From positions 208,315-272,314 of the forward strand of contig JAAXXG010000001.1 of NCBI GenBank assembly GCA_013334575.1: a stretch of 64,000 nucleotides of DNA, in the 5' to 3' direction. Every line of letters starts with the position of its first letter. Position 1 is the stretch's first letter. The notes below the pieces were generated by a model. It ran no database searches, was not told the DNA's origin, and saw nothing but the letters and a program-made list of their open reading frames with translations. The DNA is from Candidatus Moraniibacteriota bacterium. GTDB taxonomy: Bacteria; Patescibacteriota; Minisyncoccia; Moranbacterales; UBA1568. A program made the translations under genes and the position numbers. Positions 43,942 to 49,752 of the stretch are shown piece by piece.

Positions 43942-44490
43942 TCAGTGTTCATTCGCTCTTAACCATCGTTCATAGAAAGCGAGCGGGGAAAGAGAAAAAT
44001 TCGTCAGTTCGGATCCGAAAGAAAGGTTCCTCACTTCATCAAGCGAAACAGATTTCAGCCGAATATCCTCTGAACCATCCGGTGAGGCAACTCCCTCGCG
44101 GAGTCCTTGTGCTAAAAAGACAAAGGCTTCCTGGCCCATTATTCCAGCCTGCATGAAATACGCCCCAAGCAACTCCCATTTCTCCGCATCATATCCCGTC
44201 TCTTCACGAAGCTCCCTCTTCGCCGCCTCGAGGACTTCTTCGCCGACATCCGCCGCTCCGGCAGGAAATTCGTAGAGATACTTCCCGACTGGATACCGCG
44301 ATTGGCCAACGAGAACGATATTCCCCTCTAAATCGACCGGAATAATGACAACCGCCGGTGTCGGAAGGGAAACGACAAAATAGTCACCAGGCTTTCCGTC
44401 CGGACGGACAACGGAATCCTTCCGGACCGAAAACCACGGGTTCTCGTGCACTAATTCGGTATGTTTTGTTATCCACTCGAAGGGTTCATC
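43942..44490 (-). CDS. NUDIX hydrolase (ADP-ribose/NDP-sugar pyrophosphatase-like)
   Basis: Nudix box PAGAADVGEEVLEAAKRELREETG. Embedded between rmlB and rmlD. Confidence 0.75.
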   Translation of the reverse strand, partial: DEPFEWITKHTELVHENPWFSVRKDSVVRPDGKPGDYFVVSLPTPAVVIIPVDLEGNIVLVGQSRYPVGKYLYEFPAGAADVGEEVLEAAKRELREETGYDAEKWELLGAYFMQAGIMGQEAFVFLAQGLREGVASPDGSEDIRLKSVSLDEVRNLSFGSELTNFSLSPLAFYERWLRANEH

Positions 44491-44531
44491 CATATTCGGA
44501 AGATCATTCGGATCATACACCGGGCCGTTCT

Positions 44532-45533
44532 CTATTTCCCGTACTGCCTCCCGTAGTACTCGCGGTACGCGCCGCTCTTCACCGACTTCCACCAATCCTC
44601 GTGCGTCCGGAACCATTCTACGGTATCCCGGAGCCCCTCCTCGAGCGTGACCGACGGCTCCCAGCCGAGCTCGGTCCTGATCTTCGAGAAGTCGATCGCG
44701 TAGCGGCGGTCGTGCCCGGGACGGTCCTTCACGTATTCTATCGCGCCCTCGTCCCGCCCCACATGGGAAAGCAGTGTCCGGACGATCTCGATGTTCTCGC
44801 GTTCTCCGTTCCCGCCGACGCAGTAGGTTTCGCCGATCCGACCCCTGCGCAGCACGAGGTCGACCGCGCGGCAGTGATCCTCCACATGGAGCCAGTCACG
44901 GACCTGCTTCCCGTCGCCATAGACCGGAACCTTCTTGCCTTCAAGCAGGTTCGTGATCGCAAGCGGAATGAGCTTCTCGGGAAAATGATACGGTCCGTAA
45001 TTGTTCGAGCAGTTCGTGATCGTGACCGGCAGGCCGAACGTATGGAAGTACGCACGGACCAGATGATCCGACCCCGCCTTGGACGCGCTGTAGGGGCTCC
45101 GCGGATCGTACGGCGTCGTCTCGGAGAACGGCACATCGTCGGGCCCGAGCGCGCCGAACACTTCATCGGTCGAAACATGATGGAAGCGCCTCCCGTGCTC
45201 ACGTGCCGCATCGAGGAGCACCTGCGTCCCGAGGACGTTCGTCCGCACGAACGCCGAGGGCTCCATGATCGAACGGTCCACGTGCGACTCCGCCGCAAAA
45301 TGCACGACCGCGTCACATTCCGCGACAAGCGGCTTCACGGCCTCCGGATCGGCAATGTCTCCCTTTACGAACCGGAATCGCGGATTTCCTTCGGCTTCCC
45401 TCAGGTTCTCCAGATTCCCGGCATACGTCAGCAGGTCGAACACCACGACCTCGTCCTCGGGATGTTCCCGCAGGACATGATGCACGAAATTCGATCCGAT
45501 GAATCCGGCTCCGCCGGTGACAAGCAGTTTCAT
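44532..45533 (-). CDS. rmlB: dTDP-glucose 4,6-dehydratase
   Basis: [28 protein letters not shown] (YxxxK). RmlB length and motif order. Confidence 0.95.
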   Translation of the reverse strand: MKLLVTGGAGFIGSNFVHHVLREHPEDEVVVFDLLTYAGNLENLREAEGNPRFRFVKGDIADPEAVKPLVAECDAVVHFAAESHVDRSIMEPSAFVRTNVLGTQVLLDAAREHGRRFHHVSTDEVFGALGPDDVPFSETTPYDPRSPYSASKAGSDHLVRAYFHTFGLPVTITNCSNNYGPYHFPEKLIPLAITNLLEGKKVPVYGDGKQVRDWLHVEDHCRAVDLVLRRGRIGETYCVGGNGERENIEIVRTLLSHVGRDEGAIEYVKDRPGHDRRYAIDFSKIRTELGWEPSVTLEEGLRDTVEWFRTHEDWWKSVKSGAYREYYGRQYGK

Positions 45534-45769
45534 ATGGCTCCAATGGATAACTAACCCGCGGCATCTTCGTGCGCTGACCCGCTCTCGAAGACGAGTGGGC
45601 AACTTACAATAGCTCAGGATCGGTCCTTTCAGGACTTTTCATTCACTCACAGTATACATGACACGCATATCATATTAAAGAAGACAGGAAAACGTATGAA
45701 AGATACGAAAGAGAAAAGAGAGAGTCAGAAAGCACATTCCACCTTATTATATTACCCCTTTTCGCGGTA

Positions 45770-45798
45770 TTGACATTATTATTTTTTTGATATATAAT
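45770..45798 (+). promoter_or_regulatory. Consensus sigma70 promoter TTGACA-17-TATAAT (cassette 1)
   Basis: Exact hexamers 45770-45775 and 45793-45798 in AT-rich DNA. About 45 nt upstream of the lipoprotein ORF. Confidence 0.55.
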
Positions 45799-45842
45799 AT
45801 TCATAATAATTTCTAGTAACAACAAACGAAAAAACAGCGATC

Positions 45843-46091
45843 ATGAAACAGCTCGTTTCCATTCTTTCAATTCTCTTCCTGGTCGGCTGCAGCCAAAACC
45901 AGGAAAGCAAGTACTCCCGTGGAGAAACGGCGGTTGACACGACCGTGGCGGCCTCAAACCAACACGGCTCTACCTCCGCTTCGGTACGGGCAAAAGCGCC
46001 AGAGGGATATCATATCGACTACAAGATCGAAGTGGAGAGTGGGCCGGGATATTCCAGCTCCTCTTCGGAGGTATTCATACGGAGCAAATAG
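45843..46091 (+). CDS. Small lipoprotein (82 aa), hypothetical
   Basis: Signal peptide with lipobox LFLVGC. Ser-rich mature part. Own promoter and terminator. Confidence 0.5.
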   Translation: MKQLVSILSILFLVGCSQNQESKYSRGETAVDTTVAASNQHGSTSASVRAKAPEGYHIDYKIEVESGPGYSSSSSEVFIRSK

Positions 46092-46118
46092 CTGTCCGTG
46101 TACGGCATCAAGATTAAA

Positions 46119-46153
46119 CAGCACTCGATTCATCCGAATACGAGTGCTCTTTT

Positions 46154-46157
<4 letters not shown>
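46119..46157 (+). terminator. Rho-independent terminator after lipoprotein gene
   Basis: cagcactcg...cgagtgct hairpin followed by cttttttatt. Confidence 0.65.
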
Positions 46158-46701
<544 letters not shown>

Positions 46702-46775
46702 TCAATCATATTCCGAAGAATCGCCCGTTTAAAATCATTATTTTCCCTTATTTACGATAATATTACCGCCTACTA

Positions 46776-46804
46776 TTGACAAAAGCTTAAAAATGGAGTA
46801 TCAT
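46776..46804 (+). promoter_or_regulatory. sigma70 promoter TTGACA-17-TATCAT (cassette 2)
   Basis: Hexamers at 46776-46781 and 46799-46804, upstream of the small TM ORF. Confidence 0.5.
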
Positions 46805-46847
46805 AGAAAGTTGATTTGAATATTACTAACAAAAATAGAAGCCATCA

Positions 46848-47003
46848 ATGTACTATAACATCGAAGTTACCGGCTCGAAGGTCGCGATGTATGTGCTGAC
46901 CTTCATTATGCTCATCGGCAGTTTCGCCGTCGGGCCAAAAATTATCCCGGAGACGGTCTACTATGCGACCGCTCCGGAAATCGTCGTCACGGCCACCAAA
47001 TAG
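46848..47003 (+). CDS. 51-aa single-TM peptide (MYYNIEVTGSKVAMYVLTFIMLIGSFAVGPKIIPETVYYATAPEIVVTATK), hypothetical
   Basis: Hand-translated ORF below the ORF-track cutoff. Own promoter upstream and hairpin plus T-run (47025-47058) downstream. Confidence 0.35.
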   Translation: MYYNIEVTGSKVAMYVLTFIMLIGSFAVGPKIIPETVYYATAPEIVVTATK

Positions 47004-47046
47004 CCGTGCGACGGCAAAAAGTTTCGGTCTCACGCGCCCCCATGCG

Positions 47047-47140
47047 TGCGGCCGATTTTTTTATTTCCCGAACTTCAGCTCCTCCCAACAGGCCGGGTCG
47101 GATTCAAGCGCGGCGAGCGTCGGATGGTTCCGGTCCTTAT
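47047..47140 (-). repeat. Third copy of rmlC 3' end (about 90 bp, 2 mismatches vs 48662-48735), fused downstream of SDR gene
   Basis: cccgaacttcagctcctcccaacaggccgggtcggattcaagcgcggcgagcgtcggatggttccggtcctta is nearly identical to the genuine rmlC terminus. It encodes KDRNHPTLAALESDPACWEELKFGK* right after the SDR stop codon. Confidence 0.8.
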
Positions 47141-47946
47141 TCAGACTCTGCTTCGATGTTCTCTTCCGAGATCGTAACGACCTCACACTGACCGATCGGC
47201 ATGTTGTACTCCCCCGTTTCGGCATCGAATTTCATTCCGGAAAGCGCCATCTTCGATACGATCCGTCCGACAATCTCAGGATCCCTCAAGGCACCCTCTT
47301 GAATGATCTGCGCAGTACGTTTCCTTACGGCACCGCTTCCATGCTCCAAGATGTCCTTGTGCATCCGTGTATCACAAGATCCCGGTATGACCGAAAAAAT
47401 AGCGATTCCTTCATTCTCAGGTCGTTCGGAAAATTCTTGCAGCCATTCTTCTATCCGTTTCTTGGAAACTCCATACGATTCCACCCCTTCAATATTCTTT
47501 GCGGACGAGGACAAAAAGACAACTCGCCCATGAGTTCTTCTCAAAGCCTCTGACGCCTCTCGCGTCATGGCAACCTGCGCCACCTGGTTAACCTTGAACG
47601 TATAATCCAGGCCTTCTGTTATACCTGTCACTGCTGCGTTTAAAATAAGCACGTCGAGACCTTCAAGCTCATCGATACTTTCACGTACGAACCCTGACGC
47701 CGCACGGCGATCCGAGAGATCAACCTGACGAGCGATAACATCTTCGTGCTCGCCAGAAAATTCGACCAGCTTATCTTTGGTCCTCGCACAAATAGCCATC
47801 TCATGTCCATCCGAAGACAATTCCTCGGAAATCGCCCGGCCAATTCCTTCCGTTCCGCCAGTAATGATAATTCGCTTCCGCTCGATTTCATTCGTCACAC
47901 GATTGGGTGCGTACTTTTCTGCAAGGTTCCCGAACATACGCGTCAA
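47137..47946 (-). CDS. SDR-family short-chain dehydrogenase/reductase with non-SDR C-terminal tail derived from rmlC
   Basis: TGGTEGIGRAI Rossmann motif and NAAV...YGVSK (YxxxK). Lower GC than flanking core genes. Last about 20 codons (MPIGQCEVVTISE...) align in frame to rmlC DWPIREGLTISD at the DNA level. Confidence 0.85.
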   Translation of the reverse strand: MTRMFGNLAEKYAPNRVTNEIERKRIIITGGTEGIGRAISEELSSDGHEMAICARTKDKLVEFSGEHEDVIARQVDLSDRRAASGFVRESIDELEGLDVLILNAAVTGITEGLDYTFKVNQVAQVAMTREASEALRRTHGRVVFLSSSAKNIEGVESYGVSKKRIEEWLQEFSERPENEGIAIFSVIPGSCDTRMHKDILEHGSGAVRKRTAQIIQEGALRDPEIVGRIVSKMALSGMKFDAETGEYNMPIGQCEVVTISEENIEAESE

Positions 47947-48127
47947 TTACATTCCCTTATATTCAGTATACACGAGTGATAAATCGACGTGAAACACGAG
48001 TTCGGAAGATAGCGTCCATGTCGATCCAAATCGGAACATCCCGACAATGCATGACTTTCTTCCTGCTAATAGCATTCCGGAAAACCTCAATATTCGGCTC
48101 TGTTAAAGGACTTTACGGTTTGGAACA

Positions 48128-48156
48128 TTGACATGGATTATAAATTAAACCATAAT
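48128..48156 (+). promoter_or_regulatory. sigma70 promoter TTGACA-17-CATAAT (cassette 3)
   Basis: Hexamers 48128-48133 and 48151-48156, upstream of the secreted protein ORF. Confidence 0.5.
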
Positions 48157-48206
48157 GCATAGTCAGTATCAGACGATTGACCGCTTAACAACCAAACCGC
48201 AAAACA

Positions 48207-48596
48207 ATGAAACACTCACCGTTCGCCCTGTCCAAGGCTTATGCCGCCGCAATTATCATGTTCATCTACCTGTTCATCCACCAGGGACCTGTCCACGCCG
48301 AAAGCATCGCGGGTATCAAGCCCAAGGTTTCGATCACCGCGGCATACAACCACTATGGGTTCGAGCCGATTCTGCACGTCGACTATCCAGGGCCATATGA
48401 GGTAAGTACCAGGGAGCTCAATTCAAATGTTGAAATCCGGTACATATGTAACGGGCCGACTGACATAAAGTTATTCTCGCCGGGAGATTTCACTTTTATC
48501 AAGGTGTACGCGCCGGACAAGAATCATAAGGAGACCCTGATCCTGAAGGGGAAAATCAGGAACGATGGTAACAAGACCGTCACGTTCGAGCGATGA
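48207..48596 (+). CDS. Small secreted protein (129 aa) with cleavable signal peptide, hypothetical
   Basis: Signal peptide AAIIMFIYLFIHQGPVHA|ES. Predicted beta-rich mature domain. Own promoter and terminator. Confidence 0.5.
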   Translation: MKHSPFALSKAYAAAIIMFIYLFIHQGPVHAESIAGIKPKVSITAAYNHYGFEPILHVDYPGPYEVSTRELNSNVEIRYICNGPTDIKLFSPGDFTFIKVYAPDKNHKETLILKGKIRNDGNKTVTFER

Positions 48597-48618
48597 TTCC
48601 TACCTCGCAACACACAAT

Positions 48619-48656
48619 AAGCGCTCCAATTCCAAACGGAGCGCTTCTTTATTTCC
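48619..48656 (+). terminator. Rho-independent terminator after secreted-protein gene (convergent with rmlC)
   Basis: aagcgctcc...ggagcgctt hairpin followed by ctttatttcc. Confidence 0.65.
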
Positions 48657-48669
48657 TTGATCGGACGTT

Positions 48670-49242
48670 TCAGACGAACCTCAGCTCCTCCCAACGGGCC
48701 GGGTCGGATTCAAGCGCGGCGAGCGTCGGATGGTTCCGGTCCTTATCCGAAATCGTAAGTCCCTCGCGGATCGGCCAGTCGATACCGAGTTCGGAATCGT
48801 TCCAGAGAATACCGCGGTCATGATCGCGGGAATAGACGTTGGTGCATTTGTAGGAGAAGACCGTATCGGGTTTCGTCGTCAGGAATCCGTGCGCGAATCC
48901 CCGGGGAATAAAAAACTGTCGGTGATTCTCCGCAGAGAGCGTCACGGCGACATGCTTCCCGAAGGTCGGTGAGTCGCGGCGGATGTCGACCGCCACGTCG
49001 AACACCTCTCCCGAAACGACCTGGATGAGCTTTCCCTGCGAGAAGGGTTCGGCCTGATAATGAAGACCGCGCAGTGTTCCGACCGGTCTCGAGAACGAGA
49101 GATTGTCCTGCACGAAATCCGGCAGACCGATCGCGGCATACCGTTCCCGGCTGTAGGTTTCCTTGAAATAGCCGCGCTCGTCCGAAAAAACGTCCGGCTC
49201 GATGATGAGGACTCCGGGAATCTCCGTTTCGATGACGTTCAT
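48670..49242 (-). CDS. rmlC: dTDP-4-dehydrorhamnose 3,5-epimerase
   Basis: Cupin RmlC motifs (RGLHYQ ... FIPRGFAHGF ... NVYSRDHDRGILWND). Confidence 0.9.
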   Translation of the reverse strand: MNVIETEIPGVLIIEPDVFSDERGYFKETYSRERYAAIGLPDFVQDNLSFSRPVGTLRGLHYQAEPFSQGKLIQVVSGEVFDVAVDIRRDSPTFGKHVAVTLSAENHRQFFIPRGFAHGFLTTKPDTVFSYKCTNVYSRDHDRGILWNDSELGIDWPIREGLTISDKDRNHPTLAALESDPARWEELRFV

Positions 49243-49344
49243 AGGCGAAAGATAAACGCTTCCAGTATACCCGTAACGGACGAAAAACGGTAGAGACGGG
49301 GCATGCCCCGTCTCTACGCTTCGGACCGGATTCTGGATTTGCGC

Positions 49345-49752
49345 TTACAGCCGGATATCGTTCATCACGTCGTCCAGCGTCCGTTTCGCCGGTTCCGGCT
49401 TCGGTTCCTCGGAACGGGACTCCGACACGGGCGCCTCCTCGTGACAGACCGCTTCCGTAGGAACATCGGACGACGGCGTCTCCTCGTGCCGATGACCACG
49501 GGTCGACCCTTCCGGCTCGTTGATCTTGAGATTCACGCGGGCGTTGTTCTTCGCGCCGATGACGCGCAAGAGAGTACGCAATGACTTTGCCGTCATACCC
49601 TCGCGCCCGATCACCATGCCCATGTCGTCCGGATGCACGTCAAGCGTTATCAACACGCCCATCTCGTCCACCTTGCGCGAAACCTTCACTTCTTCCGGAT
49701 GATCCACAAGCGCCTTCACCACGTATTCGATGAACTCCTGGTCACGTTCCAT
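49345..49752 (-). CDS. KH-domain RNA-binding protein (KhpA/YlqC-like) with acidic C-terminal extension
   Basis: IEYVVKALVDHPEEVKV ... GMVIGREGMTAKSLRTLLRVIG type-II KH pattern (GxxG). Confidence 0.7.
   Translation of the reverse strand: MERDQEFIEYVVKALVDHPEEVKVSRKVDEMGVLITLDVHPDDMGMVIGREGMTAKSLRTLLRVIGAKNNARVNLKINEPEGSTRGHRHEETPSSDVPTEAVCHEEAPVSESRSEEPKPEPAKRTLDDVMNDIRL

Follow-up and report, generated by a model that had tools for sequence, protein, structure and literature searches.

The window analysed here, a stretch of 64,000 nt from Candidatus Moraniibacteriota bacterium, carries a group of rml genes on its minus strand; in their own direction the order is rmlC, p129, SDR, c3', tm51, rmlB', rmlC', lipo82, rmlB, Nudix and rmlD, where primes denote partial copies (Table 1).

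Table 1. Features of the rml locus, in the direction of the rml genes; positions are those of the window.
Feature	Position	Strand	Evidence or remark
Hairpin between the KH-domain gene and rmlC	49290-49317		perfect 12-bp-stem, GC-rich (GTAGAGACGGGGCATGCCCCGTCTCTAC), followed by a T run; probably a terminator, conserved in L093
Intact rmlC (dTDP-4-dehydrorhamnose 3,5-epimerase, 190 aa)	48670-49242	minus	PF00908, E 2.5e-71, full length
Repeat copy A, last 72 nt of the live rmlC	48675-48746	minus	repeat family D3; alignment
Hairpin between the convergent rmlC and p129	48619-48646	.	terminator-like; cassette-type downstream flank common to L001 and L003
p129, small predicted secreted protein	48207-48596	plus	promoter consensus-like, 48128-48156
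Classical SDR oxidoreductase ORF	47137-47946	minus	269 aa from TTG; 266 aa from ATG at 47937 (NCBI annotation)
Native C-terminal SDR subdomain	47140-47235	minus	residues 238-269; three strands and a helix
SDR stop codon TAA	47137-47139	minus	inside the rmlC-derived repeat; rmlC has GAT AAG there
c3', displaced rmlC 3' end (72-nt repeat copy B and old stop after ...FGK)	47061-47140	minus	non-coding here
Hairpin with flanking A/T runs	47033-47050	.	just past the old rmlC stop and the convergent tm51; kept in L093
tm51, small membrane protein (51 aa)	46848-47003	plus	promoter-like site 46776-46804
rmlB'::rmlC' chimeric pseudogene	46154-46626	minus	
rmlB', 5' fragment (84 codons)	46375-46626	minus	94% identical to 45277-45535; at the rmlB position of L007 and L093
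rmlC', 3' fragment (about 221 nt)	46154-46374	minus	fused out of frame to rmlB'
lipo82, small lipoprotein-like protein (82 aa)	45843-46091	plus	perfect TTGACA-17-TATAAT promoter, 45770-45798
Intact rmlB (dTDP-glucose 4,6-dehydratase)	44532-45533	minus	Pfam; comparison with L093
Nudix gene	43942-44616	minus	between rmlB and rmlD

The SDR gene encodes a protein ending in ...MPIGQCEVVTISEENIEAESE and a stop codon, as the earlier note had read it. Pfam assigns residues 24-200 to PF00106 (adh_short) with an E value of 4e-30 (105.2 bits, cut-off 26.6), and in an alignment of the protein with 29 homologues of 40-100% identity (alignment A1) the motif T29 GGTEGIG36, of the TGxxxGxG type, and the residues Y158 and K162 of the Y-x3-K pair are invariant or nearly so. 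The AlphaFold model has a mean pLDDT of 90 and displays a Rossmann-type SDR fold; its best 50 Foldseek matches in the PDB are all SDRs, with E values down to 2e-16, and the nearest folds are those of yeast YIR035C (6uhx) and KRED1-Pglu (6yc8), at a TM-score of about 0.75. The protein shares with the classical SDRs (PF00106) the Rossmann fold, the TGxxxGxG motif and the catalytic Y-x3-K pair, while it differs from them by a C-terminal extension of about 30 residues, which is peculiar to a Patescibacteria subfamily and lies outside the PDB sequence matches. It is an ordinary, complete member of this Patescibacteria-wide classical SDR subfamily. Some other members (P0010, P0043, P0046-P0049 and P0052) reach 420-460 aa, with an extra region of about 180 residues. 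The genomic context of the gene differs by lineage, being the rml locus in some and a ruvB/queH neighbourhood in L087. In the window its GC content is 0.50 and its GC3 0.51, against a GC3 of 0.67-0.85 in murF, rmlC, rmlB, rmlD and TerC, and the lower GC relative to the backbone that had been noticed from the letters alone is thus real.

The earlier note had also proposed that about 60 nt at the end of the gene can be matched to rmlC in the same frame once an insertion of 24 nt is allowed, and that the protein consequently has a hybrid, rmlC-derived C-terminus. Neither point held up. The last 30 residues or so (…EYNMPIGQCEVVTISEENIEAE) align with genuine members of the family, an outcome that the note itself had named as refuting its reading; they are conserved in the 29 homologues of alignment A1 down to 40% identity; their consensus is KFNPETxEYDIPIxxCEVVxISDENIEFE, with Y247 invariant and F240, N241, D248, I251 and E267 conserved in at least 90%. 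The same tail is present in SDR homologues without an RmlC match in their flanks of 6-8 kb (L087, where the gene sits between ruvB-side genes and queH, and L008-L014). In the AlphaFold model, which was built from alignment A1, residues 238-268 form three strands and a helix with a pLDDT of 95-98 over the block. A PDB sequence search for the tail gave matches that end at about residue 205-245.

At the DNA level, a standard local alignment of the SDR 3' end with rmlC stops exactly at ATAAGG and does not extend upstream. A permissive gapped alignment of the 100 nt upstream of the junction scores 15 against rmlC, compared with 9.35 +/- 3.8 for all 100-nt windows of this sequence, shuffles serving as a further background; scores of at least 15 were reached by 18 of the 1278 windows, and the similarity is marginal, at about background. 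The SDR tails of the relatives score 5-12.75. What the two genes share is essentially GCCGATC and TTACGATYTCGG, coding for P-I and T-I-S-D/E in both proteins, and the T-I-S-D of rmlC is found in this species only, its relatives having TVLE, AVSD or ILSE. Aligning these stretches takes a gap of 25 nt, not 24, together with one of 6 nt, so that the rmlC remnant lies in another frame than the SDR, and for this reason the GAT AAG of rmlC is read by the SDR as its TAA stop. The subfamily's own extension, a beta-hairpin and a helix, happens to contain P-I...T-I-S-E; apart from its stop codon the gene owes nothing to rmlC, and this protein has no hybrid C-terminus.

Conversely, the near-exact copy of the rmlC 3' end that had been reported right after the SDR stop is there: 47069-47140 and 48675-48746 are identical at 70 of 72 positions, the repeat beginning at the ATAAGG inside the SDR stop codon. 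In the rmlC frame c3' reads KDRNHPTLAALESDPACWEELKFGK up to the old stop. It holds only the last 26 codons of rmlC, compared with the about 170 residues of a complete cupin domain (PF00908), and is a gene fragment, not an RmlC gene. Past it, the hairpin at 47033-47050 is the native terminator region of rmlC and tm51, while the live rmlC continues with GTCTGA and a different hairpin, as it does in L001 and L003. A search of Rfam at a permissive E-value over 45000-49600 gave no RNA family, and the folding of the remnant with its flank is not unusual (z = +0.96).

The origin of this remnant is clarified by a Moranbacteria contig found in a search with tm51 (L093; GCA_013336155.1, JAAXUE010000002.1), which is 98.3% identical to the window over 51500-48675 and 98.8% over 45534-42000. 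Its locus consists of rmlC-tm53-rmlB only. The last 72 nt of its single rmlC and the flank downstream (...GGTTCGGGGAATAAAAAAATCGGCCGCACGCATGGGGGCGCGTGAGACC...) run collinear with what the window has as remnant and adjoining flank, so that the remnant is the displaced native end of rmlC. Compared with L093, the window has a 1.6-kb insert (terminator, p129 and SDR) bounded by the 72-nt direct repeat; taken together, about 3.2 kb of the window, roughly from 48739 to 45505, stand in place of about 0.5 kb. This is a presence/absence polymorphism within a species, with its boundaries inside rmlC and rmlB. On one side the window's rmlC is 100% identical to that of L093 for about 458 nt, from about 49197 to 48740, past which it has 7 changes in 27 nt, all of them also found in the remnant; on the other side identity picks up again about 30 nt into rmlB. 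The idea that a foreign SDR had been grafted into a copy of rmlC was thus partly right: a compositionally atypical SDR gene was joined by recombination to a partial rmlC end, but no copy of rmlC was invaded, the remnant being the original end of the only rmlC.

The junction is not confined to this genome. In three other Moranbacteria lineages (L001/L002, L003-L006 and L007) an SDR gene is followed by an rmlC-end remnant starting at the same AAGGAC. The SDR of L001/L002, 77% identical to that of the window, runs on out of frame through 11 codons of the remnant (...ESEEGPDLSDARRA), and in P0002, which has this same C-terminus, the ...EEGPDLSDARRA portion is the remnant read out of frame; the SDRs of L003-L006 and of L007, both 75% identical, end in ...QKGPAA and ...QEGPAA, respectively. 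At the position of the window's TAA these relatives carry GAA, AAA or GAA, and the SDR frame reads 5-11 codons onward. Out-of-frame hybrid SDR tails are thus real in the relatives and absent from this genome. Since the SDR-remnant junction is common to four SDR lineages that are 75-77% identical, it is old. The join lies at AAGGAC, where breakpoint and microhomology on the SDR side cannot be placed to the base because the native ends of the family vary after ...EAE. In L086, with an SDR 70% identical, at most a possible remnant relic of about 18 nt precedes rmlB, which calls for a loss or another history in that lineage. In L006 (CAINXS010000083.1) the place immediately upstream of the SDR, taken by rmlC and p130 in other lineages, is occupied by an IS256-type transposase (PF00872) at 301-1257. 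L007 (DATMYW010000041.1) is titled 'Candidatus Fimivivens sp.'; its locus is syntenic with Moranbacteria (murF-KH-rmlC-...-rmlB-rmlD-TerC), with 70-83% DNA identity, and the label or the binning of this MAG looks wrong.

Because the duplication predates the split of the lineages, the two copies within one genome are expected to be no more alike than orthologues. They are more alike in two cases, both over short tracts: the two rmlC ends of the window match at 71 of 75 positions, compared with 61 of 75 for the remnants of the window and L001 (Fisher p=0.02), and the copies of L007 share an identical 51-nt tract, where those of L003 match at 35 of 49 (p=4e-5). Moreover, the T that forms the SDR TAA matches the GAT codon of rmlC, which is GAT in L093 too. 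These patterns point to gene conversion between remnant and live rmlC, probably in both directions; the seven variant bases present in both copies could alternatively mean that a haplotype boundary lies at 48739, with no conversion into rmlC. A simple Campbell integration into an L093-like recipient was considered as the sole explanation and rejected, since both copies carry the same 7 non-L093 bases on the left side.

A second scar is found further along. The fragments rmlB' and rmlC' are joined at GAGTCGCAC/ACGGATTCC, with a 6-nt microhomology, TCGCAC (46375-46380), and out of frame, so that the product would be a truncated peptide of 87 aa (...AAESHTDS and stop). The rmlC' fragment is itself a mosaic, whose 5' 122 nt share 89% identity with the resident rmlC, while its 3' 96 nt are 68% identical to the resident gene and 73-77% to L090/L091. 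On the two sides of the join the window follows different relatives: 47873-46375 is collinear with SDR-c3'-tm51-rmlB of L007, and 46384-44536 with rmlC-lipo82-rmlB of L091. The window thus carries two alternative haplotypes in tandem, joined at rmlB'::rmlC', and alternative haplotypes, rmlC-lipo82-rmlB and rmlC-tm51-rmlB, were found in relatives as predicted.

The content of the interval between rmlC and rmlB differs in every lineage examined: it is p130-SDR-c3'-Nudix in L003, Nudix-SDR-c3'-tm51 in L007, p141-SDR in L086, lipo82 alone in L090 and L091 and tm53 alone in L093. The p129 protein is 87% identical to the protein found at the same position in L003, and p129 is cargo travelling with the SDR. 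A homologue of tm51 (P0072) lies between rmlC and rmlB in L093, and tm51 is also present in L007; it is the native rmlC neighbour in the simple haplotype. Homologues of lipo82 (P0067 and P0068) occupy the same interval in L090 and L091, one lipo82 homologue being labelled YcfL by JGI. A Pfam search with p129, tm51 and lipo82 gave no family match. All three are recurrent cargo of this variable slot in the relatives, the stretch from rmlC to rmlB as a whole being a hypervariable slot whose cargo strains exchange. As a further observation, the three small genes lie on the strand opposite to the rml genes, each behind a near-consensus promoter of the sigma-70 type. The Nudix gene has a GC3 of 0.51, as low as that of the SDR, and there is an 85-nt overlap between its longest ORF and the 3' end of rmlB; in L003 rmlB is flanked by two Nudix paralogues, while the one of L007 stands between rmlC and SDR.

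The reading that best accommodates these data, to which we assign a probability of roughly three in four, is that a native SDR and a displaced rmlC end came together by the entry of a block into an exchanged, hypervariable slot, followed by conversion; how the DNA recombined, which way conversion ran and in what order the events took place are inferred. A block formed by a new rmlC end, its terminator, p129 and SDR would have entered the locus and pushed the original rmlC 3' end downstream, most likely by a homologous crossover within rmlC at one edge, while at the other edge the SDR 3' end was joined illegitimately to codon K167 (AAGGAC) of rmlC. Gene conversion would later have made the orphan end and the live rmlC alike again, and would have put the T of the rmlC GAT AAG into the SDR frame as TAA; on this account the SDR ends in ...AESE, and not 5-11 codons into the remnant, because conversion created the stop. 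The remnant is now non-coding and merely separates the SDR from the native rmlC/tm51 terminator. The two scars agree in polarity, with foreign DNA joined inside rmlC and followed by an old rmlC end with its native neighbour; this shared polarity fits a homologous crossover in rmlC with an illegitimate join downstream, as in homology-facilitated illegitimate recombination (HFIR), as well as 'sequential displacement'.

Integrative elements can target the 3' end of a gene, which is then duplicated as attL and attR. A decayed site-specific element with its att site in the rmlC 3' end, carrying a cassette with a replacement end, would likewise leave the 72-nt repeats as attL/attR, and the locus resembles such insertions in having a partial 3' copy as direct repeat at the far end of an atypical insert, two genes of low GC3 at the 3' end of a conserved gene, and a precise empty site in a strain 98-99% identical. 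However, this origin is unlikely: neither within nor next to the insert is there an integrase, recombinase or transposase in the window, L001, L003, L007 or L086, and a Pfam search covering the ORFs of the window and 5 related loci found no recombinase or integrase domain, L006 alone having the IS256-type transposase. Moreover, what lies between rmlC and SDR varies by lineage (p129, Nudix or a relic), the repeats would be kept alike by conversion and not by recent integration, and the second scar, where rmlB meets rmlC at a microhomology, is no att-type event.

An artefact of metagenome assembly or binning, in which haplotypes of co-occurring strains were threaded in series and produced false repeats, was given weight by several circumstances. 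The GenBank MAG accessions behind the window, L001 and L093 seem to be neighbours, several haplotypes do exist, and the rmlB'::rmlC' junction is seen in this assembly only; an exact 24-nt scan for it in JGI metagenome contigs gave 0 matches, and the exact window proteins (the rmlB' ORF and P0001), looked up in other assemblies, were not on record. Against this, the SDR-remnant junction recurs in independent assemblies (NCBI, Logan, ENA and GTDB), the 6 nt shared at rmlB'::rmlC' are presumably too short for bridging in a k-mer graph, and the duplicated parts have diverged (94% for rmlB', an 89%/68% mosaic for rmlC') as expected of old copies, which makes a chimera very unlikely. It is more improbable still that rmlC was duplicated in tandem by unequal crossing-over and that the SDR landed in the second, dying copy. 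The presence within 3 kb of three 3' ends of rmlC and two 5' ends of rmlB would suit that course of events, but L093, with its single rmlC end, is collinear with the remnant and flank, the third copy has the 3' end and downstream flank of the L090/L091 haplotype, no 5' rmlC remnant stands upstream of the SDR junction, and no relative with two full rmlC genes flanking an SDR was seen in 9 loci. Finally, the origin of the last 20 or so SDR codons from rmlC (DWPIREGLTISD with an insertion), giving a chimeric enzyme C-terminus, is scarcely credible: the two short shared stretches and the gapped score that speak for it are outweighed by a tail that is conserved across the family, also at loci without rmlC, and confidently structured in the model, and by an alignment that changes frame. 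Four shared residues and an adjoining gene fragment do not make a chimeric enzyme, and a tempting misreading is thereby corrected.

In Enterobacteria, the rml genes are known from the O-antigen literature as recombination borders of variable polysaccharide clusters. The present locus is similar in that haplotype boundaries fall inside rml genes and near-identical flanks enclose a swapped interior; unlike those clusters, the interior is made of small ORFs with an SDR or Nudix gene, not of glycosyltransferase sets, and the host is a CPR bacterium.

The block entry proposed above has counterparts in two processes. The first is HFIR, described in PMC3240628 and known from Acinetobacter, S. pneumoniae and P. 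stutzeri through the original papers as referenced in PMC5361080. As in HFIR, the insert adjoins an anchor and is held by homology on one side, here rmlC, which equals that of L093 over about 458 nt up to 48740, while on the other side it would be joined without homology or at a microhomology of a few bases, which is clear for the 6 nt of rmlB'::rmlC'; an empty site is found in L093. The difference from the HFIR studies is that here the process is deduced from scars in uncultivated Patescibacteria, with a junction on the SDR side that is not resolved to the base. The second is the displacement of C-termini with formation of orphan 3' arrays at the rhs, cdiA and T6SS effector-immunity loci (Kirchberger et al. 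2017, PMC5361080; Jackson et al. 2009, as cited in PMC5361080), for which a 'sequential displacement' model has been proposed (PMC5361080; PMC3240628). In those arrays, as here, an intact gene is followed by older 3' ends, each with its own neighbour (c3' with tm51, rmlC' with lipo82), and new material comes in upstream via the conserved 5' part. However, rmlC is a housekeeping epimerase, its displaced ends encode nothing useful and the ORFs downstream are no known immunity genes; a comparison with polymorphic toxin C-termini and immunity pairs found no such pair, the displaced ends being rmlC and p129, tm51 and lipo82 being without a Pfam family. Nothing points to selection for the array at rmlC.

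A bolder view, which we consider unlikely, is that the conserved 3' end of rmlC and, in the same way, the 5' end of rmlB serve as integrase-free docking sites, where homologous recombination between the 72-nt repeats excises a p129-SDR circle. If so, reinsertion by a single crossover at any rmlC end would recreate the structure seen, the interval would be an integron-like slot for small secreted or membrane genes and accessory enzymes among Patescibacteria populations, and the homogenisation of the repeats in the window and in L007 would mark cycling rather than passive gene conversion.

The repeat is real and explained: it is a recombination scar of a known kind in a very variable sugar-synthesis locus of Moranbacteria. 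What is known of SDRs, of rhamnose synthesis and of recombination mechanisms is left unchanged by it. The locus may also serve as an example of how conversion from a live gene into an orphan fragment can shift the stop codon of a neighbour. Recombination is little documented in the CPR group, and this locus, with its empty counterpart in a strain 98-99% identical, offers a clean, datable example from an uncultivated member of how insertions leave scars, genes are converted and alleles are swapped.
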